This document shows positions 2,233 through 58,970 of a stretch of DNA of 64,000 bases, in pieces. The DNA lies in NCBI RefSeq assembly GCF_036365525.1, contig NC_090371.1, positions 117,752,388 through 117,816,387 of the forward strand, in the 5' to 3' direction. Below the pieces are notes generated by a model. That model was not told the origin of the DNA, did not search any database, and worked only from the letters and a program-made list of their open reading frames with translations. Each line of letters starts with the position of its first letter. Position 1 is the stretch's first letter. A program made the translations under genes and the position numbers. Source of the DNA: Heterodontus francisci. Its lineage: Eukaryota.

Positions 2233-2321
2233 CCTTTACGTATTCTCTCTGTTATTTCTTTTCAGATTTTGATAAAGTTGATCAAGCATTGGCTGTATTT
2301 GAGAAAGCTGTGTGAACTGAG

Positions 2322-2790
2322 GTGTCAACTATGGCTCAGTGGTAGCATTTTTGCTTCTGTGTCAGAAGGTACTGGATTCAACTCCCACGCCAGAGACTTC
2401 AGCACGAAAGTCTAGGCTAACACTCCAGTACAGTACTGAGGAAGTGCTGCTCTGTTTGAGGTGCCTTTTGTCGGATAAGGCATTAAACCAAGGCCCCATC
2501 TGGCCTCTCAGGTAGATGTAAAAGATCACATGGCACGTTTCCTAAGCAGTGCAGTGCAGTTGTCCCCAGTGTCCTGGCCAATATTTATCCCTCAACCAAC
2601 ATTACTACAAGAGATCTTCTGGTCATTATCAGATTGCTGTTTATGGGATCTTGTTGCCTACATTTTTGGCAGCCACGTTTTCTACGTTACAACAGTGACT
2701 ACACTTCAAAAGTATTTCATTGACTGTGTAAAGCACTTTCAGGCATCCTGAGGTCATAAATGGTGCTACATAAAAGCAACTTTTTTATTT
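2322..2790 (+). mobile_element. tRNA-derived SINE (Deu-domain/SacSINE1-like) with L2-type tail
   Basis: A/B-box-like head (tggctcagtggtagc...ggattcaactccc), central ttaaaccaaggcccc...gatgtaaaagatc domain, and tail ggtgctacataaaagcaac. Related copies lie at 20870-22720 and 28145-28558. Confidence 0.75.
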
Positions 2791-3139
2791 TTATTACCAC
2801 AAGAATTATGATTATTTTGAATATTTTGCTCTCTATAATTAAAGACTCTTTTTCATTGAAGAAAATGACTTTGTTATTTATCTTTATTGTCATCTTGCTT
2901 TTGATAATTCTTCTAAATTTCTTTGGGGGTTCCCCCTTTGTTCTGTCATATGTTTGGAGGGAGAGCAGTGGATTCACGGGAGAAGTGGTGTGAAAACATA
3001 CACTTCATTTCTCTAGGGATTTCGCCAATCTTCCACTGAAGTTATGGGGGTGTTCAGCACAACCTCTGGAGTTTGGGGCCATAATCAGTAGCACTGCAAG
3101 TGTACTGTCAATAATTAAATAACAACTTTAAAAAATGTC

Positions 3140-3695
3140 TGATCAGCTGGAGTACTGCGTCCAATTCTGGGTGCCACACTTGAGGAACAATGTGAGGGTA
3201 TTGGAGAGAGTACAGAAAAGATTCACGAGAATGGTTCCAGGGATGAGGAATTTCAGTTATGAAGATAGAGTGGAGAAGTTAGGACTGTTTTCCTTGGAGA
3301 AGAGAAGGCTGAGAGGTGATCTGAAAGAGGTATTCAAAATCATGAGGGGTCTGAACAGAGTAGATAGAGAGAAACTGTTCCCAATCCTGAAAGGATCAAA
3401 AACGAGAGGGCACAGATTTAAAGTATTTGGTAAGAGAAGCAAAAGTGACATGAGGAAAAACTTTTTCATGCAGTGAGTGGTTGAGGTCTGGAATGTTCTG
3501 CCTGAGAATGTGGTGGAGGCAGGTTCAACTGAAGCATTCAAAAGGGAATTAGTTATATGAAAAGGAAGAATGTGCAGGATTACAGTGAGAAGGCAGGGGA
3601 ATGGAACTGAGGGAGTTGCTGTTTCAGAGAGCCAGTGCAGACACGATGGGCCGATTGGCCTCCTTCTGCACTGTAACAATTCTGTGATTCTGTGA
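3140..3695 (+). mobile_element. CR1 LINE 3' end
   Basis: ORF 3135-3476 (LEYCVQFW...LFSLEKRRLRGDL...TRGH), followed by a 3'UTR and an (attctgtg)n tail. Confidence 0.92.
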
Positions 3696-5539
3696 AGTTC
3701 TCCTGTTATGCCCGAAGGATTGGCTGAGTAAACACTGATCGTTCATCTATACCCAAATGCAGTGTACAGTATGATGAGAAGTGCAGTATAGCTACTTTAG
3801 CCTAACTTGGAATGAACCAATACTGACTGGATTAAGTAATTGATTCCTTAGATTTAAAACAAGTTTTTAAAAAATGTACATTTTGAATAGTTTTCTTAAA
3901 AAACTCAGTTCTTTTAATGTCCAGCTATGTGGAAATCTCTAAGTAGCTGAAATGAGAACAGTGCTTGGAAAAGTCTTGAAATCACAAGTGATTGTATAAA
4001 TACTCATGACCTTTTTAAATAATCCTTCACACTCTACTTTCATGTTTCTGTCCTAATTTTCTCCAATTGCTTCAACTTAATTTAGTTTCTTTACTGTTTG
4101 TGTCCTTTTCTACTTGTTTGACAAATCTGTTCAATGTCATAGACTATTTAATGTGATAAATCTGATTGACAAATTAGCTGGAATAACAAAAAAAAGAGTC
4201 CAGCCTGCCAGATTAAGATAGGCTTGATGCAGACGCTCTTATCTTCCAAGAAAAATCACATTTCATACCTGTAAGAATAAGAGAGTAAAAATTCCAGGGC
4301 TTTTGGATATGAAAATTCAGCACAGTGGGTGTAACAGCGCAGGTATTTCGGTCAGAACACATTTCTGCCAGGTTACTATCTTTCTATGACACTGATGACA
4401 AACTCCATTGAGGGTAGGTGTTCTTCTGTGTGTCATGTCAGTGCTGGGAGTGGGGGCTGCCAGCACTCTAGGCTTCCCTGGAAATTCCACCAGTTTTGCC
4501 TCTTACACAGCCTGTTTGAAACAGTCATTCTTACCATTCGTGTCTCTAAGTTGGCCCCACAACTTACTCTCCAAATGGTAATCGCTGGTGTTCAGCAGAA
4601 TAGTGAGGGAGAAGCATAGAGGAAGATCGGTAACGTTTTAACCTTCAGCCAAAGTTACCTGTGTGCCAACCTTCCCCGCCATTTGAAAATCTGAGTCCAT
4701 GGACAAGGTGCCATGACAGCACCAGTACTAGTGTGAGCATCTGGCTCTATGATCTCAATGATCATGCAGTGATGAGGCAGAGAAAACAGACTTTTGAGGC
4801 GGGGATGGTTGGATATGAACATGCCAGCCAAAGAACACAAATTCAACAGGTTTATCTTTCAAATAGGAATTACACAATAACGTTCAGAGAGAAACATTAC
4901 TTTCATTATTTTAACAATTCAAACAAAGCAAATGGAAAGAGGAAGAGTCTTGTCAGATAAAACCTCTAAAGCACAAAAACCAGGTGCATGTAATGTGTTA
5001 TGTGTCTATCAATATCTTCACTGCTATTGACTGCAATATCTCAGTGAACATTTGGAATTGAAAGCCCAATTCATCGGTTTTCACTGATCTGATTGCAGAA
5101 CTGTCTAGTTCTGAAGAATATCCATTGTTTCTATATTCCATCAAATGGTTTAAGGCACATCTTTCGAAATAAGGAGTGATCCTTTTAAAAACAAATCAAA
5201 TTTTAAGGCTGCTTGAACACAATCAACTCGACCCACCCCTCCTTACCTGTGGCATTGTGACCCTGTTTCCTGAATGTGGTTTGGGGTCAAGGTGAGGGCA
5301 GATGGGCATGCAGAAGTCTGATCCTGCCACACTTCAGATGGCACAACTCCAGGAGGGCAACGTCAAAATTTTACATTTTAATGCACCGAATCCCAGCTCA
5401 GGTCAGTTGACCAAATTTACATTGTAAATGATAGATCGATAGATTTAAAAAAATAGAATAATTAATATATGGAGAATGTTAATGTAATCAGAAGACACAT
5501 GCTATGAACTAATTCGAAAGGCTAATTTTTTGTTTTGAT

Positions 5540-6610
5540 GCAGAGGCGATTTGTGACCTGCTCACGCCAGTTCCGTTGGAGGTGGACTGCACCCAAACTT
5601 GGTGCTCCCATCTCATTTACCTAATTGTAATGTAGGGCTGAGCGGGTTTCTTGTTACTGTTGGCCACTTTGCTCAGCAGGGGGCCATGCAGCATTGTGAT
5701 GAGAGCATGCAGTGCAGTCAGTACTCGCTTCTAAAAGGTAGTCTATCCCTCTTAAAGGGAAGCTGTATTGAACAATGTTGCTGGAATTTAAAACATGGAA
5801 AATGGAATACCAAGGCAGAGAGAGAATGTTCCAGGGTGATGGATGTGACACGAGAGGTGGTGGGCAGGAGGAGAACAGTCATGTTCCACGAGGGACCAGG
5901 AGGCCTTCAAGGACCATCCTCAGAGGGAATGGGAGCAGGTGGTCAGGGAAGTCAACTCCAGAAGCAGGATTGGGGTGAGTACAGAGGTGGGTGCCACGAA
6001 AACATGCACTGCCAGCTGGCTTGCTGGTTTACTGGCACCATCCCATCTCTGGGCCATTTTCCAGGAGGCGGGATCAGTGGCAGGTAACAAATTAAAGGGA
6101 GTTAATGACCTGTTAAGGCCCATTGTCAGAGGCTGACTGGAATTTTCCAGTTGGCTTGCACCCAGCGCCGCCACCACCGCCCCCCACCCCCACTGCCCCT
6201 CCAAGGTGTCAGGAACTGGGCCAGCAGCCTGGAGGTGACCTCCCAACAGCAGACTGGGGGTGGGGCCATCACTCCAGGCAGGCTTTGAGGCCCTGCCTGC
6301 CTGCCTGGCTACAGCTGCAGCTGCAGACCGAACATTGTGGTTTCCCCCTCCACAAGGGGCCTGGCTGCTGAGACAATTTTTAATTTAAAACATTTAAAAG
6401 CTGTAGCAAGGGCACCGCTCTCTCTCTTACCTGAACTATGGTCTGCTGCTCTTTCTGTGCTGGAGGGCCTCATTGGAGCACCACACAGGCCATGCCGTAA
6501 GTGGCTAGTGGCACAGAGTGCCCAAGCAAAAGGGTGCTAGGCCTCTGCAGTGCGACCTCCCACAGCGCTATGGAGATGGAATTCACTCCTCCAGCCCCCC
6601 CCCATCTATT
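5540..6610 (+). mobile_element. Non-autonomous PIF/Harbinger derivative with a Myb/SANT ORF remnant
   Basis: 5800-5970 translates, across frameshifts, to EVVGRRRTVMF..RRPSRTILR.EWEQVVREVNSRS, resembling the Myb-like ORFs at 10060 and 32440. The GC-rich MITE-type body follows. Ends are approximate. Confidence 0.5.
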
Positions 6611-40560: not shown

Positions 40561-43274
40561 CGCCACTATTCTCCCATTTGTTGATTTTGGACAGTTAAAT
40601 TTGGGTCTTGATTTTTACTGTATATATCCCTTTACAATCATATATATTTCAGAATAAAAGTTAAGGTGATCCCTATAAAGGTAACTGTTATTTGCACACA
40701 AGCAGCATAATAATAACATGCAACCAGAAAGCCCTTGACCAAGTACAACTTCTCAGGAAACTGACCCTGGTAAATGCACTTGCGAAGAAATTATACTGGG
40801 CTGCCAACTAGGAAGCCTAATTTCCTGTTGTCTAATGCATGCTCCAGAAATTCTATTTCAGCAAGTGATGTTGATTCTTTATTTGAACGTCTGCCTACAG
40901 GGGGCAGGGTTTAAGGTTATGATATTGTCCATAAGAGTGATATCAATAAGAGAGTTATTGGTATTCTGTGTCGGCTTTTAGATTGACGCAGACTATCCAG
41001 CTGTATTGGATCTTGGGTTCCTATCATAAACATAAAGATAGACAGAGAACTAAAAAGCATTAGTGATTGGTAACAGGCAGCATGGCTGATTTTATTTTCA
41101 ACTCCCCAGAGGAACTGAAATCAATTCTAGCATCCCAATCACTGCCCAGGCTGAGATCAACTAACTCAGCAAAAGATGGGAATTTCAACTGGGGCCATCT
41201 GGTCTATATGACGGAGTGATATACAGTTAGTTCCTTTACGCACTAAGAAAGCACTTGCATTTATATATCTCAAGGGCATTTAGCAATAGGCAATAAATGC
41301 TGGCCTTGCCAGCCATGCTCAAAACCCATGAACAAATAAAAACACTTTCATGATCTCAGGACAAAGTGCTTCACAGGCAATGGAATATTTTTGAAAGGTA
41401 GTTAATCTTGTAATGTAGGGATCTATGGCAGACAACGTTTGAGCAGTAAGGTCCTAAAAACAGCAATAAGATAAATGATTAGGCTATGTAGGCCTTGAGG
41501 GGAGTTGATTTGGTTCTTAACACAGCATGAGAAGCAAAATAAAAGGGAAGCTTCTATATTCAATTCAGTACTTAATGTAATGTAGTGCAGTGGTGACTTC
41601 ACCTTTAAGAAACCATACCTTTAAGAGATCAGGCCACTGATGCAATTGATGACATCATCAGACGTATATAAGGAGGAAACGGCATTTTGACAGCTACGCT
41701 CAGCACATGGTTTTACAGAGAGCAGATATGCACCAGTGAGAAAAAGATCTGTACCTGAGATCATACTATGCAGATAGATAAGACAATACATGCTATTTGT
41801 GTTGAATCTGAATATAAAGTCTGCAGTTGTCATTTAATGAAGACTTAAGAACACAGCATAACACTGCACGTAGCAGTCTATCAGACAGCTTATTTACCTG
41901 TAAATAGCTGATTTTTTGGGCTTTGTGAATGTTCTATAGTTTCAGAAATAACCCGATTTCAAAAATTTCTTATAGTTGTGAGAGCAAGGTTTGGAGCTAT
42001 ATGGAGTTTAAGTGGGAAATGGAGCTACAACAGAAGAATTTTAAGTTTTACGAACATTTGAAAGAATGTGAAAAGGACATAAATCCCTTATCAAAAGAAG
42101 GAGAAATGTAGCAAGAATGAAAGCATAATCATGATGGCTGAATAAGGATCTTAAAAGTTAATTTGTAGTCTAAACAGAAAAATTGACCTGGCTTTCGCAG
42201 TCAGTGCTGCAGTGACAGTGCTTGCCGGTGACCTCTAAGAAAGCGACCTGCAAAGATTTAGCAATCTCTGTGGTATGGATTTCATCTTTCCTGATATTAA
42301 TTTGATTCTGGTACCAAGAATAGGGGATTTCCAGCATTCAGTGACTATGATGCCATCAAGCAGATGAAGCAGCCAATCTCATTGAAGAATACTTTCAGAC
42401 CGTAAACCAGGAAGTAAAATGCATTCATTATCTTTCACTTTTTAATAATTTTGCAGAGAGCAGAATAAAGATTGGGACATTCAAATGGGATTAAGCTTGG
42501 AGCTGAAATACCACAAACAAACTTTAAAAAAGTTAAAATTCAATGTGATTTTTTTGATCATAATGGAGAATTTTGACATTTCACAAATATATAGTTAGTT
42601 TTTTAGGGCCAAAGAGGTTGTTCAGCAGTAATTATGAACTTAGTACACTGGTTAAATCCAGTTACACCTCATTCAACAAGACATAACTTTTTCAAGGGTT
42701 TTTAGTCATACTAATAACATAAAAGTGCAAGTTCAGGTCAATTCAAGTGATTTCAAAAGAGTTCCAACTGTGGGGACTTCAACAGCACAGCTTGTGGAGC
42801 AGCCAGGAATCACTGAGTTCTGTGTTTAAGTCTGTATGTGTGGGCGCCAGAAGTTGCTGTCAGTTTCACAGTTGTAGGCTGAGACTGTATGGGCCCACCT
42901 AAGGTAGGGTTGGGGGAGGGGGGGGGGGTGTATGGAGTATCGTGACAGTGAGTGAAGGGCCTATCTCCTCCCCATTGTCAGGTCATCTTCCCAAGGGTGG
43001 GATAGGCTGATGACGGCCTTCCTTTCCAGAGGACAATTGAGTCCCTTAAGTTGCCTATTAACAACCATTTAAAAACATCTTGCTCCCGCTGGGACCTTGC
43101 CAGCAGTGGTCGGGGCCTCTGCCATGCGGGAGAGGTCACCTTGTAACATGAGGGGCACTCCCTGTGGGTTTGGGGGGGTGGCCCCCTCCAAGGGCAATCA
43201 GTAGCTCATGGAGGACCCTCACCAGGAAACACCACTCCCAGGTCGACCCTCCCCCTGGACTGCGTGACTGCCTC

Positions 43275-43520
43275 TGTTGTGTGATTGCCTTTAAAAGTAA
43301 TGTAACTTTAAGATCTTAGTATGCAAATAAGCCAAGTACCAGGATGTAGTCACGTGGCTCCATGCCAGTAACACCAAGAGGCAAGTTCTGTAATAGTTAG
43401 CTCCGTATTGTATATATTAGTTAGCTGTTTAATAAACCTGTTTGAGATCTTCAAACAATCTGAACTCCATGCATCTCATTTATGTTGCATCCGACAACAT
43501 AAAAGAAGCTTCTCATTGTA
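43275..43520 (+). repeat. 5' LTR
   Basis: Direct repeat of 45888-46145. Contains ATGCAAAT, CACGTG, a TATATA box and AATAAA. Confidence 0.95.
43351..43356. promoter_or_regulatory. E-box CACGTG in the 5' LTR (CATGTG at 45961-45966 in the 3' LTR)
   Basis: Motif seen directly, upstream of the TATA-like tract; function is inferred only. Confidence 0.4.
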
Positions 43521-43538
43521 TGGTGGCAGCAATGAATA
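43521..43538 (+). promoter_or_regulatory. Primer binding site, tRNA-Leu type
   Basis: TGGTGGCAGCaaTGaat immediately follows the LTR and is complementary to the ...GCTGCCACCA 3' end of vertebrate tRNA-Leu(AAG/TAG-type). Confidence 0.7.
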
Positions 43539-44284
43539 AAAAAAGCTTCTCATTGCATTGTGGGAACTGTGGTTAGAAGACCACAGGAAAACAGCTTTTA
43601 AAAACTACCTCCCTATGAAAGAAAGTTAAAGTAAAATACTGGCCCAAACAGGGAAAGAAGAAAACACTTACCTCAAGCTGTAGAAGACAGAGCTGAACGA
43701 CAGGCTGCAAGGAAATTGGGTGAGTCTTTTGCCGATGGGCAAGGGATACTGCTTTAAAGAAAAAGCTTTTAAGTTGTTAAGCAGATCGATTTTATTTTCA
43801 AAAGCTCTAAAGTGCTGACATATTGATCTTTTTCAAAGTCTCTGTTTAAAAAAAATGGAGAAAACCCGACTCCTCTCCCAGGCTAAAGGGTGGTCCGCGC
43901 CATTACAAGATGTGCCCGACAGTGAAAAGTGCGAGAATCCTTCATTCACACAGCTCACAGCAGAAGCTATAAAATCACTCAACCGTGAGGAGCTTGCGGT
44001 CACTCAACCTGAGTTTTCAAAAAACTCATAAAACCACTCAAGCATTAAGAATTGCCTCTTGAACAGCTGTACAAACAGACTAGCAGAAAAAAGGCACTTA
44101 AAATACCTATTGGACAGCTGTATAAACAACAGGCTTAGTGCTGGAAGCTGGACATACAGACAAGCTGCTGCTGCCAATCAAACCAGCCAAGAGAGTTTCT
44201 TAAAGGAGAAGCAGTACAGAGTCACTGAACCAGGTCTTAAAGCCAAATTCAGAGCAAAAGAACAGCAGCCAGGTGGATTCCAAC

Positions 44285-44765
44285 TTTCCCAGCATGAACT
44301 GAAAAACCTTGGATATCTAATCTGAGTTCCAACTGTTCAAACAGAGAATGCAGTTATACTTCACAGACTAAGTGATGGTAGAACCAGAGAAGCAAGCTCT
44401 AAACATAATGATAGCGATTGAAAATGAGGGATTGCACAGAATCAATACTTATGAATTATCTGAACAGGACCAGAAAAATCTTGCTAAGATATGGAAAGTG
44501 CTGGAAGATGAGCTCCGCTTAGAATTCACCACCTGGAATTGATCTCCTATAGGCAACAGCCACAGGAATCAATAGATCAGTTTGTCAGTAGATGTTGAAC
44601 TAAGGGCAACGAATGTGATTTCTTGAAACCTGAGCTGTCAGATTGAATAATGGAGTTGGTGATTATATCAACACCCATCGAAGTGTTTCAGAGGGACCTC
44701 TTGGGGGAAAAAAGAAAGGTCACAGCATTGGCGCACTTCTGGAAGATGGCAGGAAAGCACTAGAG
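44285..44765 (+). pseudogene. gag: Gypsy gag (capsid core), decayed
   Basis: FPSMN*K..SEFQLFKQRMQLYFTD..KIWKVLEDELRL/RIHHLELISYRQQPQESIDQFVSRC*TKGNECDF..LSD*IMELVI, with stops and frameshifts. An N-terminal extension may start near the ATG at 43855. Confidence 0.8.
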
Positions 44766-44909
44766 ACATACATAATTACAAACCGGTGCTTGAGGTCCAC
44801 AGCAAAACAGACCTGGGACAAGACCCAGAGAGAAGTAAGTCTCAATCAGAAGACGAGCAAGCATTCCACATTGTGAACCTGACACATTATGTTGATGAAG
44901 TCACGTAAC

Positions 44910-45245
44910 TGGAAGCTTTCACTGCCGTCAACATCACGTGCCCAAATAATGCTGGGATACACACACTCAAGGTGAGGAGTGACACTAGTGCTAGTGCAGA
45001 TATCTTACCAGTTCGAATCCTCAAAGATATGTACTGGAGTTGTTGGAGATTGATGATACAACCGACAATTGCCAAACTATTTGCATACAATGGGTCACCC
45101 ATCACTTGCAGTGGCACATTAACAATGCAATGCAGATACGACAGATCAGCATGGAAACCACAAACGTTCAACCTAGTAGGCACGAGCGGACCAGCAGTGG
45201 CAGGGCTACCAGCTTGTAGGGATCTCAACATCACCATTCACGAGA
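44910..45245 (+). pseudogene. Retropepsin-type aspartic protease
   Basis: ORF 44972-45391: DTSASADILP (degenerate DTGA), KLFAYNGSPITCSG, and AVAGLPACRDLNI (ILG..-like C-terminal motif). Confidence 0.88.
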
Positions 45246-45298
45246 GCATCGCCAAGGGGAAATCTCTAAGAACCGGAACCCGCTCACAGACTCCGACC

Positions 45299-45730
45299 AG
45301 CATCAAACGGTGGAGTCTGGAAACCCAGCAACAGCACAACTATGCTCTGCTTTCACTTCTGCTCTGTAGAGAACCGATAACACCACAATGAGCCAGAACG
45401 GACAGGTATCTCCATGAGACCAAGTACTCTACCCCTAGCAATTCCTCGACTTTAAGCCCCAAGCATTCAGATGTGGAGGATGAGGAGAGGCGAAGGATAT
45501 GCAATGTCCTGAAGAGGCGAAGGAGGAATGAGTTGAAGCATTGTCTATTGGCTGTTTGAGTTGAGATGCTGGAACTTTCCAAGAATGACGAGACCCCAAA
45601 AGTTGTCATCTTGAGAAAAGTAACAGAGTATATTAGCAGGCTGAAGGCAGAGCAACAGAAAATGAATTAAGTGTGGGAGAAACTGCAGAAAGAACAGCAA
45701 CAGATGAGATGCAAAGTCCCTGAGCAAGAG
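45299..45730 (+). pseudogene. myc: Captured Myc-family C-terminus (QHNYA motif, SP-S-D-E-D linker, bHLH-leucine zipper), in frame with the protease, with 3 premature stops
   Basis: SIKRWSLETQQQHNYA...LSPKHSDVEDEERRRICNVLKRRRRNELKHCLLAV*VEMLELSKNDETPKVVILRKVTEYISRLKAEQQKMN*VWEKLQKEQQQMRCKV, compared with Myc RRTHNVLERQRRNELK..LRD..PEL..NEKAPKVVILKKATEYI. Stops at 45389, 45557 and 45668. Confidence 0.93.
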
Positions 45731-45873
45731 TTGTCAGATCACCGAGATGTCCGATGGACCTTTGAGCCTCTATTCTTGTAAATTTCATAATCTCTAGTCA
45801 TGTATGAACAATTTTGATATTGAATTTTATGTACTTTTTACTTTTAACATACAAGACGTATCTACTTATCTTT

Positions 45874-45887
45874 GGAAAGAAGGGGGA
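45874..45887 (+). promoter_or_regulatory. Polypurine tract
   Basis: GGAAAGAAGGGGGA directly precedes the TG of the 3' LTR. Confidence 0.9.
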
Positions 45888-46145
45888 TGTTGTTTGATTG
45901 CCTTTAAGAGTAATGTACCTTTAAGATCTTATGCTAATGAGCTATGTGCCAAGACATAGTCATGTGACTACATGCCAGTCTTACTATGCTACTGTAACAC
46001 CAAGAGGCAAGTTCTATAATAGCTCTATAATGTATATATTAGTTAGTTGTTTAATAAACCTGTTTTCAGATCTTCAAACAACCTGAACTCCACGCATCTC
46101 ATTTATGTTGCATCAGACAACATAAAAAAAAAGCTTCTAATTGCA
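45888..46145 (+). repeat. 3' LTR
   Basis: TGTTG...TTGCA, followed by the TSD GCCTC. Confidence 0.95.
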
Positions 46146-46766
46146 GCCTCCTTGCCCCCCTACCATGCTGGGGCCTTCCGGACTGGCCCCGGCGACCCTG
46201 TCTCACCTACCTCTGGTCCAGGGTCCCAGTGCTGGGCCTGGGTCCGAGGCCTCTGCAGTACCAGCAGTGGCACTGCTCCCAGTGGCACTGCCGATACTGC
46301 TGAGCTGCTAGCCCTCTGATTGGCTGGCAGCTCATGGAGACGGGATCCCCATCCTTAAAACGACCTGGATCCCAGCTCATGAAAGTATGATGTAAAAAGA
46401 CAAGAGGATCGCGAGGTGGGGGGTGGAGGTATGGGGGAAACATGAAAAAGCAGAGGCGAGAATCTGCCCCCCAGCTTTTTGGCCCAGTGCCAGAAGCCCC
46501 ACCTCCTACACAAAATCCAGCCCGTAATGTCAGCAAACATTAACAGTTTTACTATCATTATAACTGGAAAATCCAGACCATTGAGTTAGAGCTATTCTAG
46601 AGGATCTCCCAGTGAATGCTTAGACTCAGCTTCATAAAAATGCAGATTGGATCTGATTTTGGGTGTGTCTGTGGTGACTTGAGGAAATTATCTATTTATT
46701 AGTGTGATAGACGTCTCTGTACTGTCTAGTTGCTTGATCTTGATTATTCAACTGAAATGTTAACAC

Positions 46767-55039: not shown

Positions 55040-58000
55040 TTATTGGTTTGCTCCTCTTGCTGCATGTAGGAATCCAAGAACATTTCCAGTCCCCGGGACC
55101 AGCATGTGTGCAGGAAGTGTATCCAGCTGCAGCTCCTGGAAGCTCGGGTTTCAGAGCTGGAATGGCGGCTGGAAACATTGTGGAGCATCCGCGAGTCTGA
55201 GAGCATCGTGGATAGCACGTTTAGAGAGGTGGTCACACCACAGCTGAAGGGATTTGAGGAAGGAAGGGAATGGGTGACCACCAGGCAGTCCAAGAGAAAC
55301 AGGCAGGTAGTTCAGGAGTCCCTTGGGGTCTCGCTTGCATATCGGTATTCCATTTTGGAGGCTGATTAGGCTGGTTCCTCCAGGGAGTGCGGACAGAACC
55401 AAGCTTCTGGCACCACAAGCAGCCTGTCTGCACAGGAAGGGGGGAAGAGAGGAAGAGCAATAGTACGAGGGGATTCTATAGTCAGGGGAACAGATAGGCG
55501 CTACTGTGGCCATCAACGTGACTCCAGGATGGTGTGTTGCCTCCCTGGTGCCAGGGTCCAGTATGTCACTGAATGGCTGCAGGACATCCTGAAGGGGGAG
55601 GGTGATAAGGCAGAGGTCATGGTACATGTTGGTACCAATGACAAAGGTAGAAAGAGGGTTGAGGTCTTGCATCAAGAATTCAGGGAGTTAGGCAGTAGAC
55701 TAAAAAGCAGGACCTCTCGGGTTGTAATCTCAGGATTACTCCCAGTGCCACATGCTAGCAAGTATAGAAATAGGAGAACAGCACAGATGAATGCGTGGCT
55801 TAAGAGTTGGTGCAGGAGGGAGGGTTTTAGATTCCTGGACCACTGGGACCATTTCTGGGGAAAGTGGGACCTGTACAAACGGGACGGTCTACATCTGAAC
55901 CAGAGGGGGACTAACATCCTTGCTGGAGGGTTTGCTAGTGCTGTTGGGAGGAGTTCAAACTAATTTGGCAGGGGGAGGGGACGCAAACTCCTAGCGGAAT
56001 AGGGACACAGCTAAACACAGGAAAGCGAACAAGTCAGAGGGAATACAGCGGAAGTAAGTTTCAAGGGAGTAAGACCAGGATGGATGGCCTCTACTTTAAT
56101 GCCAGGAGTATTACAGGTAAAACGGATGAGTTAAGGGCAAGGATTGACACGTGGAATTATGATATAGTAGCCATCACGGAGACATGGTTGAGGGAGGGGC
56201 AGGATTGGCAGCTCAATATCCCGGGATATAGAATCTTCAGGCGAGACAGAGGAGGGGGTAAAAGATAAGGGGGAATTGCAACATCAGTTAAAGAGTCAGT
56301 TACTGCAGTATGGAGAGATGATATCTTGGAGGGGGCATCAAATGAAGCTTTATGGGGAGAGTTTAGGAATAAAAAGGGGACAGCCACATTGCTAGGTGTT
56401 TATTATAGACCCCCAGATATTCAGTGGGAAATTGAGGAGCAAATATGTGTGCAATTCGCAGAGGTGTGTAAAAATAATAATAGGGTCATTATATTAGGTG
56501 ATTTCAACTTTTTCAACATTAATTGGGATAGTCATCGTGTTAAGGGCTTAGATGATGTGGAGTTCTTAAAATGTATACAGGAGAACTTTTTAGCTCAATA
56601 TGTAGAGGATCCAACAAGGGAGGGTGCAGTGCTGGACCTAATTCTGGGGAATGAAGCCGGACAGGTGGTTGATGTGTTGGTGAGAGAGCATTTTGATGAT
56701 AGCGACCACAACATGGTACAATTTAAGCTTGTTATGGAGAAAGAAATAGACAAGTTGCAAAAAAAGGTTTTGGATTGGGGGAGAGCAAATTTTAGTAAAA
56801 TAAGGCAGGATCTGGCCAAGATAGACTGGAAAGAGTTACTTGTGGGGAAATCTACAGAAGAGCAGTGGGGGGCATTCATAAAGGAAATGGGGAGGGTACA
56901 TGCCCAACATGTTCCCTCTAGAGTAATAGGTAGGAGCAACAAGCCCAGAGAACCATGGCTGACCAGAAACATTCAGGGTATGATGAGAAGGAAAAGAGAG
57001 GCTTTTAGCAAATACAAGGAGAGCAAATCAACAGAAGCATTAGTGGAGTACAGAAAGTGTAGGATGGAGCTTAAGAAAGCAATTAGGAGAGCAAAGAGGG
57101 GATAGGAGAAAGCTTTGGCTGGTAAAAGTAGGGAAAATCCCAAGATATTCTATAAGTATATCGATGGGAAGAGGATAACCAGGGAAAGAGTAGGACCCAT
57201 TAAGGACCAAGGGGGAAATCTGTGGGTGGAGCCAGAGGACATTGGTAGGGTGTTGAAAAAATACTTCACATTTGTCTTCACCCAAGAGAATGAGGATGTA
57301 GATATGGAACTCAGAGAGAGAGACTGTGAGGCTCTTGAGCAAATTGTCATAGGGATTGACAAGGTATCGGAGGTTTTAGCAGTCTTAAATGTGGACAAAT
57401 CTCCAGGTCCGGACGATTTGTATCCCAGGATGCTGTGGGAGGCGAGGGTGGAGATTGCAGGGGCTCTGACCCAAATTTTTAATTCCTTTCAGGCCACGGG
57501 GGAGGTACCAGAGGACTGGAGAACAGCTAATGTGGTCTCACTATATAAGAAAGGTTGTAGAGATAAGTCAGGAAACTACAGACCAGTGAGTCTCACGTCA
57601 GTGGTAAGGAAACTATTGGAGAAAATTCTGAAGGAGAGAATCTATCTCCACTTGGAGAGGCAAAATTTGATTAGGAATAGTCAGCATGGCTTTGTCAGAG
57701 GGAGGTCCTGCCTAACAAATTTGATTGCATTTTTGAGCATGTGACCAGGTGCGTAGATGAGGGTAGTGCAGTTGATGTAGTTTACATGGATTTCAGCAAA
57801 GCCTTTGACAAGGTCCCACATGGGAGACTTATCAAGAAAGCAAATGCACTTGGGATACAGGGTAACTTGATAAGGTGGATTCAAAATTGGCTTAGCTATA
57901 AGAGACAGAGAGTGATGACAGACGGCTGTTTTAGTGACTGGAAGCCAGTGTCCAGTGGCGTACCACAGGGATCTGTGCTGGGTCCCCTATTGTTTGTCAT

Positions 58001-58970
58001 TTATATAAACGACATAGATGACTATGTGGGGGGTAGGATCAGTAAGTTCGTGGATGACACAAAGATTGGCCGAGTGGTTAACAGTGAGGTTGAGTGTCTT
58101 GGGTTACAGGAAGATATAGGCGGGATGGTCAAATGGGCAGAAAAGTGGCAGATGGAATTTAACCCTGAAAAGTGTGAGATGATACACTTTGGAAGGAGTA
58201 ATGTGACATGGAAGTATTCAATGAATGGCCTGACACTGGGAAGTTCTGAGGAACAAAGGGACCTTGGTGTGTTTGTCCATAGATCTCAGAAGGCAGAAGG
58301 GCAGGTTAATAGGGTGGTGAAAAAGGCATATGGGACACTTGCCTTTATCAATCGAGGCATAGATTACAAAGGTATGGAGGTCATGTTGGAGTTGGATAGA
58401 ACTTTGATAAGGCCACAGCTGGAGTACTGTATGCAATTCTGGTCGCCACATTATAGGAAGGATGTGATTGCACTGGAGGGGGTGCAGAGGCGATTCACCA
58501 GGATGTTGCCTGGGATGGAACATTTAAGCTATGAAGAGAGTTTGGATAGGCTTGGGTTGTTTTCGCTTGACCAGAGAAATCTGAGCGGTGACCTGATCAA
58601 GGTGTACAAGATTATGAGGGGCATGGACAGGGTGGATAGGGATCAGCTGTTCCCCTTAGTTGAAGGGTCAGTTATGAGGGGACACAGGTTTAAGGTGAGG
58701 GGCGGGAGGTTTAAGGGGGAGTTGAGGAAGAACTTTTTTTACCCAGAGTGTGGTGACGGTCTGGAATGCACTGCCTGGGAGGGTGGTAGAGGTGGGTTGC
58801 CTCACATCCTTTAAAAAGTACCTGGATGAGCACTTGGCCCATCATAACATTCAAGGCTATGGGCCAAGTGCTGGCAAATGGGATTAGGTAGACAGGTCAG
58901 GTGTCTTAAATGCATCGGTGCAGACTCGATGGGCCGAAGGGCCTCTTCTGCACTGTATTATTCTGTGATA
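55040..58970 (+). mobile_element. Near full-length CR1 LINE: ORF1 (Zn-finger/leucine zipper + SGNH esterase), ORF2 (APE + RT) and 3'UTR
   Basis: ORF1: VCRKCIQLQLLEARVSELE, GDSIVRG, CLPGARV, HVGTND, DGLHLN. ORF2 (~56080-58890): YFNARS, AITETWL, GDFN, SDH, KSPGPD, MDFSKAFDKVPH, FVDDTK. Few stops/frameshifts; attctgtgat tail. Confidence 0.95.

Follow-up and report, generated by a model that had tools for sequence, protein, structure and literature searches.

A decayed LTR element with a mych fragment in place of its pol core

The window, i.e. the whole stretch of 64,000 bases analysed here, contains a single, decayed copy of a non-autonomous LTR element of the Ty3/Gypsy type, 2,871 bases long (positions 43275-46145). 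The genome of Heterodontus francisci, in which it lies, measures 6.0 Gb. The copy consists of LTRs, a 5-bp target duplication, gag and a protease, and the core for reverse transcriptase (RT), RNase H and integrase is replaced by a piece of mych. Its features, all on the + strand, are the following.

43270..43274, +, target-site duplication GCCTC, left (identical five bases at 46146-46150)
43275..43520, +, 5' LTR (aligned to the 3' LTR, 25 differences in 236 bases)
43521..43530, +, primer-binding site starting with TGG immediately 3' of the LTR (from the sequence); we take it to match the 3' end of tRNA-Leu
43531..44293, +, leader, without coding capacity in the family (97 copies, each of the three frames with about 8 stops per 149 codons)
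44294..44724, +, gag, capsid-like part, frameshifted in the window copy (tblastn with a full Gypsy-type polyprotein, residues 1-148, two frames)
44725..44911, +, gag end and spacer (other copies align here as two separate pieces, with a gap between them)
44912..45244, +, aspartic protease (motif at 44981, altered in the window copy)
45244..45715, +, captured mych piece, host residues 201-357 (86% DNA and 72% protein identity to host mych), with box IV (QHNY), nuclear-signal region, basic region, HLH and zipper; stops at 45389, 45557 and 45668
45716..45781, +, C-terminal tail of integrase, a remnant whose frame is shifted following a shared deletion (shifted in 107 of 108 copies with this joint)
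45874..45887, +, polypurine tract (from the sequence)
45888..46145, +, 3' LTR, TG...CA (LTR alignment)
46146..46150, +, target-site duplication GCCTC, right (from the sequence)

In the window copy the 5' LTR ends in TA, not CA, and some 270-290 bases near 44752, including the zinc knuckles, are missing. The protease part of its frame matched a Gypsy-type polyprotein with an E value of 2e-26. Target-site duplications were found automatically in 14 of 28 copies of the short form, to which the window copy belongs, and in 3 of 22 others.

Several minor features were seen in and around the leader. The final bases of the 5' LTR recur just 3' of the primer site (43506-43575), and inspection by eye detected splice-donor-like motifs at 43667-43680 and 43719-43726, one per strand, as well as two imperfect tandem copies of about 57 bases each (44047-44140). 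At 43855-44330 the window copy has a frame of some 155 codons, interrupted by one stop, which other copies have not kept. Outside the element, the window (1-64000) holds numerous scattered repeats, both direct and inverted, as well as frames without a stop that reach up to 377 codons (55151-58814); these are probably remnants of LINEs and SINEs. No tRNA gene was found in the 64,000 bases.

The fragment was captured from spliced mych RNA

Protease and bHLH-ZIP are joined in a single frame that extends from 44909 over the protease motif (44981), SIKRW (45299) and QQHNYA (45329) into the bHLH-ZIP and terminates at 45779. The preliminary description of this locus had reported a continuous frame interrupted only by stops at 45389, 45557 and 45668, and exactly this was seen. 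Read with X at the stops, the frame matched human Myc bHLH-ZIP chains with an E value of 4e-15, and Pfam HLH matched at the cut-off. As the piece is also 72% identical (114/158) to the host Mych protein, its identification as Myc is sound. The limits first given for it (45299-45781) had to be revised, and the gene, at first named simply Myc, had to be specified. The piece begins at 45244 (SIAKGKS...), 18 codons before the joint proposed earlier, and ends at 45715; the last 22 codons of the frame are integrase-tail DNA in another frame. It is nearest to mych (86% DNA identity, whereas mych and the two other myc loci fetched share only 66-68%), and c-myc and N-myc were therefore rejected as sources. 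The host mych locus has two coding exons, and its translation is identical to the 'myelocytomatosis oncogene homolog' (mych) of Heterodontus francisci. Among the 119 scored candidates of a Myc_N search, only three listed loci had the N-terminal Myc exon (C5, C3 and C16); an L-myc locus was not among these candidates, probably because it was crowded out by element copies.

The stops at 45389 and 45557 had been ascribed to CpG decay. This explanation holds, since the corresponding host codons carry CpG and since 43 and 36, respectively, of 152 other copies also have a stop at these positions. The stop at 45668 is private to the window copy (0/147 other copies).

Members of the family were compared in a sample of 155 distinct myc-bearing copies, chosen by likeness to the window or by Pfam Myc_N and not by protease frame. 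Ten loci were left out (the host gene twice, other myc genes three times and five duplicates). The sample leans toward well-kept copies, and rare joints may be missed. The longest form, seen in 29 copies, extends from host residue 120, in exon 2, to about residue 357. Alignment to host mych showed that long forms span the border of exons 2 and 3 ungapped, without the 1.7-kb intron. Since exon 2 sequence is joined to exon 3 without the intron in the longer members, the piece was captured from spliced RNA. Exon-2 starts are found in 50 of the 155 copies, so the earlier statement that the piece corresponds to the last coding exon is right for the short form only. Myc boxes I and II, also described as absent, are missing from every form, given that even the longest starts at residue 120.

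Two other explanations of the piece, chance resemblance and a processed pseudogene that landed in an intact element, were rejected because the piece replaces pol, has neither a poly(A) nor a duplication of its own, and recurs at fixed joints.

At least seven public entries named 'myc-like' or 'N-myc-like' (P0004, P0007, P0010, P0263-P0266) seem to be copies of the element that were annotated as genes. P0004, P0007 and P0010 were judged from their sequences, in which a protease tail or linker is fused to mych, P0263-P0266 from name and identity. Such annotations would inflate Myc family counts in Heterodontus francisci.

The parent family is a single-ORF Gypsy-type element

Gag and protease belong to a group of Gypsy-type elements with a single ORF, which we take to be the Mag/SURL clade. 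Elements of this kind from sea urchins and other sources (P0100, P0104, P0129 and P0149) share Gag, protease, linker and C-terminal tail motifs with the shark element and are 34-43% identical to it over protease and linker but, unlike it, carry no myc. The order of pol domains in the relatives is PR-RT-RH-IN according to Pfam, which did not recognise the protease; likewise, a homologue search with the protease only gave no match.

Thirty RT loci were fetched from the same genome. About 20 of them match the gag-protease-linker of the myc element at about 74-85% and continue into RT after the joint, i.e. these RT-bearing parents diverge from the myc element exactly at the joint. All 15 RT loci fetched at greater length match the LTR of the myc element, and a polyprotein of 1,374 amino acids is colinear with RT-bearing copies carrying this LTR. 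In the RT-bearing parents only about 150 bases separate the end of the integrase tail from the LTR, which leaves no room for env. Some RT-bearing relatives shorten the integrase tail near the site at which long myc forms do, and two (L195, L201) have internal deletions in pol and integrase.

One lineage-specific capture and mass spread of its product

RT, RNase H and the integrase core are absent from the myc element, and matches to the parent stop and resume at the joints. At the 5' capture joint of the long form, parent and host share seven bases, in frame. At the 3' capture joint both have Lys-Phe codons, and the frame continues into the integrase tail. The commonest 3' joint leaves the integrase frame in 107 of 108 copies; the frame was thus kept into myc and not beyond. 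The insert displays the features of an LTR-mediated retrocopy, namely a spliced mRNA source, replacement of an internal ORF, microsimilarity and re-copying as a non-autonomous element.

In a comparison among seven cartilaginous fishes, the copies were 80% identical to host Mych and 55-72% identical to that of the six other species. Because they keep seven of the nine residues private to the host's Mych, the capture is lineage-specific, and an old capture shared by all sharks is not supported. Extra myc-like entries came from Heterodontus francisci only, which is weak evidence as it depends on annotation. Synonymous divergence between host and family (dS 0.059) is about half of that among long copies (0.145), suggesting that spreading began soon after capture. 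Zebrafish mych is described as being switched on broadly after the mid-blastula transition (PMC3958507, in the part cited); by analogy, this is a plausible time for capture in the shark.

A search of the genome with a 20-base myc motif (up to two mismatches) yielded 2,286 matches (control, 7), as compared with 1,434 for an RT motif of the parent family and 2,606 for a protease motif; myc-bearing matches thus outnumber RT-bearing ones. Capture-recapture on one contig gave about 3,400 myc copies (2,300-5,600). On one contig, examined for myc-less deletion derivatives, 18 of 46 protease matches were accompanied by the myc motif, six by the RT motif and 22 by neither, with the caveat that exact motifs miss most copies. 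The LTRs differ by 10.6% in the window copy and by 9-11% on average in each class (50 pairs), which indicates an old burst. Contigs of a second organism, from runs presumed rather than known to be RNA, are spread over all 30 bins, one of them crossing the short joint; the family therefore predates the split between the two organisms.

The reading frame is kept at all five shared protease-myc joints

Five shared 5' joints between protease and myc were seen, and all five are in frame. This applies to 18 of 26 scored copies with the capture joint, to 15 of 16 with the joint of the middle form, to 83 of 84 with the joint of the short form, and to all four copies of two rare forms (two copies each). 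As no frameshift shared between the gag start and the protease tail was found, and two copies checked have a single frame over this distance, the Gag-PR-Myc polyprotein suggested earlier is borne out as a reading frame. A shared frameshift inside the protease was considered, because 34 of 81 short copies are shifted one way, and rejected, because the deletions are scattered and private, the largest cluster comprising nine copies across classes. In the gag spacer of short-form copies, a 12-base deletion is common to 31 copies and a 30-base deletion to three, both in frame.

Private events served as a yardstick. Short-type copies with a private indel beside the joint were out of frame in seven cases and in frame in one; the frame was kept by 31 of 99 private indels within the myc piece and by 41 of 146 large private events in gag-protease. 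Matches between protease linker and mych were in frame in 7 of 9 cases when at least seven bases long and in 42 of 111 when at least five bases long, and the three later joints have little or no microhomology. Taking about 0.7 for each of the two long-match joints and 0.33-0.38 for each of the remaining three, a hand calculation puts the probability that all five are in frame by chance at about 0.02.

Early loss of DNA-reading residues

In Myc, the His, Glu and Arg residues of the basic region read the E-box. Across the three main classes, the Glu was kept in 7 of 27, 0 of 17 and 2 of 87 copies, its replacement being nearly always Lys, and the His in 20 of 26, 10 of 21 and 23 of 88. All three residues were kept together in 9 of 147 scored copies. 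Genome-wide, the Lys codon was found 554 times and the Glu codon 33 times, plus the host gene, so that Lys is present in about 94% of copies. The His and Glu losses of the window copy are thus not private to it, and the data do not support a family with an intact basic region, for which the preliminary description had proposed a test. Two of three named DNA-contact residues were hit among 11-14 shared changes in 155 codons (P = 0.013-0.022).

The piece has a bHLH-ZIP and no transactivation domain. A Lys in a motif that we take to be a Myc-type nuclear signal was kept in 23 of 29 long and in 0 of 85 short copies, and the motif EEIDVV, presumably Myc box IIIb, is absent from the short form. The Glu-to-Lys exchange lies at a position that we assume to be equivalent to p.E555K of E47. 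The latter abolishes E-box binding, keeps dimerisation and, among the substitutions described in the part of the report cited, is the strongest dominant negative tested at that position (PMC11286708). For Myc, an excerpt of PMC7226237 describes a role of box IIIb with WDR5 and a secondary nuclear signal beside the basic region. Two functions considered earlier lose ground accordingly: with Glu lost, a dominant negative occupying E-boxes or a chromatin tether is unlikely for about 94% of copies, and a nuclear-import module is weakened by the missing nuclear-signal Lys of the short form.

Selection on the stem of the short form, and present decay

Selection on the stem of the short form was estimated from pairwise distances with CpG swaps masked; codons 113-146 were dropped as the frame-reference copy has three private deletions. 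For the myc piece, dN/dS was 1.1-1.5 (about 1.3; dN 0.021-0.022, dS 0.015-0.019) with very wide limits, those of dS reaching from 0.001 to about 0.045; the stem holds about two synonymous changes and provides low power. For the HLH-ZIP, dN was 0.021 and dS 0.014, with uninformative limits. No sign of purifying selection on the myc piece was thus seen on this stem, which is a weak test. The preliminary description had named a dN/dS near 1 as an argument against a functional fusion; such a value was found on the subfamily stem, with wide limits. Among long copies, dN/dS was 0.74-0.96. A ratio of 0.23 between host and family was not accepted as evidence, because this branch includes the host gene's own evolution.

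On the same stem, gag-protease had a dN/dS of 0.24-0.31 (about 0.27; limits 0.15-0.47; dN 0.028, dS 0.103). The ratio for myc exceeds that for gag-protease (bootstrap P about 0.013), and its dS is far lower (P = 0.0005 or less). Divergence amounted to 0.104 for the LTR, 0.077 for the integrase tail, 0.059 for the leader, 0.04-0.05 for gag-protease and 0.019 for myc, i.e. divergence of the backbone is 2-5 times that of the myc piece. The backbones of RT-bearing copies cover the same range, three of 15 falling near or between the short type. This is most simply read as a renewal of backbones from the parent family through recombination. The gag-protease of L204, L205 and L202, which are RT-bearing copies, lies near or between the short myc type, pointing to a possible exchange of backbones between parent and myc elements. 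Since backbones were likely renewed in this way, the selection signal in gag-protease cannot be credited to the myc element; it may reflect the parent lineage and was not accepted as proof that the myc element used its own Gag-PR. All copies that were examined now decay as non-coding DNA does.

Origin and possible role of the myc piece

A Gypsy-type element that read gag-PR-RT-RH-IN as a single frame exchanged its RT-RH-IN core for part of a spliced mych mRNA. The exchange took place at short in-frame matches on both sides, with the template probably switching twice during reverse transcription. The resulting non-autonomous element was copied thousands of times, RT and integrase presumably being supplied in trans by the parent family, and the active element would have made a Gag-PR-Mych polyprotein. 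Later forms shortened the myc piece from its 5' side, staying in frame each time, and also shortened the integrase tail. A frame left open almost to the 3' end may have been favoured, for RNA stability or polyprotein processing, and Myc activity may have been stripped stepwise, with boxes I and II lost at capture, Glu and His early, and box IIIb and the nuclear-signal Lys thereafter.

Because Glu, His and the nuclear-signal Lys were lost while the joints stayed in frame, the most likely role of the piece, which we favour tentatively, is that of a translated but disarmed cargo. A frameshift or stop before myc would disarm it more easily, yet none is shared. Moreover, the stem test is of little power (myc dS limits 0.001-0.044), the hits at contact residues lie above chance (P = 0.013-0.022), and the Glu-to-Lys exchange fits a selected function equally well.

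One such function, possible although rather improbable, would be the sequestration of Max. A released or displayed HLH-zipper might bind Max without reading E-boxes and lower Myc/Mxd/Mga-Max activity in germ-line or early embryo cells, thereby aiding copying of the element. All five joints are in frame, trimming never removed the bHLH-ZIP among the copies seen, the Lys lineage makes up about 94% of copies, and two of the three DNA-contact residues were hit. The finding that myc-bearing motif matches outnumber RT-bearing ones (2,286 versus 1,434) points in the same direction. Copies were found via myc, so that its retention is partly a matter of ascertainment. E47 p.E555K retains the ability to dimerise and is the strongest dominant-negative change at its position (PMC11286708). 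Mouse Max is reported to act in germ-line gene control (PMC10909893); PRC1.6 reportedly represses genome-defence genes too (PMC8639735), and a reduction of Max could hence hurt the element. Further, purifying selection on the HLH-ZIP was not seen (dN 0.021, dS 0.014, uninformative limits), dN/dS of myc lies above that of gag-PR (bootstrap P about 0.013), and a benefit acting in trans would go to all elements in the cell. We consider it doubtful that the element represents a natural transposon-made anti-Myc, i.e. a Max-sequestering accessory protein derived from a captured Myc paralogue, without its transactivation half and the DNA-reading Glu, that would aid germ-line spread in the shark.

Pure chance is likewise an unlikely explanation. 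The piece would be neutral filler, its frame favoured by microhomologies, and Lys would have hitch-hiked with a successful master copy. In-frame matches of at least seven bases between linker and mych (7/9) do cover the capture and second joints, and two of the five joint classes consist of two copies each, whereas the three later joints, with little or no microhomology and a prior of about 1 in 3 each, lower the joint chance to about 0.02. Neutrality is in line with equal dN and dS of myc on the stem and with the 2-5 times greater divergence of the backbone, as if the piece rode along during backbone swaps. Finally, it is most improbable that the piece served the particle or the integration complex as a module for nuclear import or chromatin tethering: the piece replaces the integrase core and adjoins the integrase tail, its basic region gained positive charge, and Myc is described in part of PMC7226237 as having a secondary nuclear signal beside that region, but none of 85 short copies retains the main nuclear-signal Lys, the E-box Glu is lost, box IIIb (the WDR5 tether) is deleted in the short form, and the piece is fused to the protease, not to a working integrase.

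Comparison with known systems

Whether as disarmed cargo or otherwise, the long, middle and short forms and the Glu and Lys lineages constitute a graded record of the fate of a captured proto-oncogene. This record allows a test of whether captured host domains serve a transposon or are merely tolerated. If Max were sequestered, a vertebrate retrotransposon would have gained an accessory gene from its host, and a transposon-made anti-Myc would be the mirror image of myc-transducing tumour viruses. No report of the shark mych-carrying family was found in the full text of the articles searched, which cover few subscription journals.

MC29 is an acutely transforming retrovirus with a gag-myc fusion. 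Viruses of this type resemble the shark element in being helper-dependent LTR elements in which an in-frame gag-side myc fusion replaces pol. Unlike MC29, the shark carrier is of the env-less Gypsy type and fixed in the germ line, and its cargo is mych without boxes I and II and, in about 94% of copies, without Glu, hence not a transforming Myc. The element is thus structurally like a myc-transducing defective retrovirus but does not belong to this group, as it has neither env nor transactivation boxes.

As far as described in the parts of the reports cited, a bHLH-ZIP without transactivation domain and the Glu-to-Lys exchange are shared with Omomyc (PMC7780693) and E47 p.E555K (PMC11286708), respectively. 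Omomyc needs its DNA-binding residues for full effect (PMC7780693, in the same part), whereas the shark piece has lost them.

The shark element is a member of the LTR-mediated retrocopies, of which Tan et al. (2016, PMC5131818), in the part cited, describe a small number of cases per animal species (3 to 15). The mechanism is therefore known; scale and cargo are unusual, in that one capture of a Myc-family gene led to thousands of germ-line copies, more than there are of the parent element. Maize Bs1 and HERV-K/FAM8A1, both cited in PMC5131818, are LTR elements with transduced cellular coding sequence as well; Bs1 is a low-copy element with pieces of three genes, FAM8A1 a single processed pseudogene, and, in the account given there, neither carries a transcription-factor dimerisation domain as the shark element does. 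In common with the retrocopies described in that part of PMC5131818, a stretch of the internal ORF has given way to a stretch of an mRNA, both LTRs are kept, microsimilarity is seen at the joints, and the product was re-copied. The shark element differs from the cases described there in that a single capture gave rise to over 2,000 copies, in its cargo from a proto-oncogene family, and in a frame maintained through five joints.
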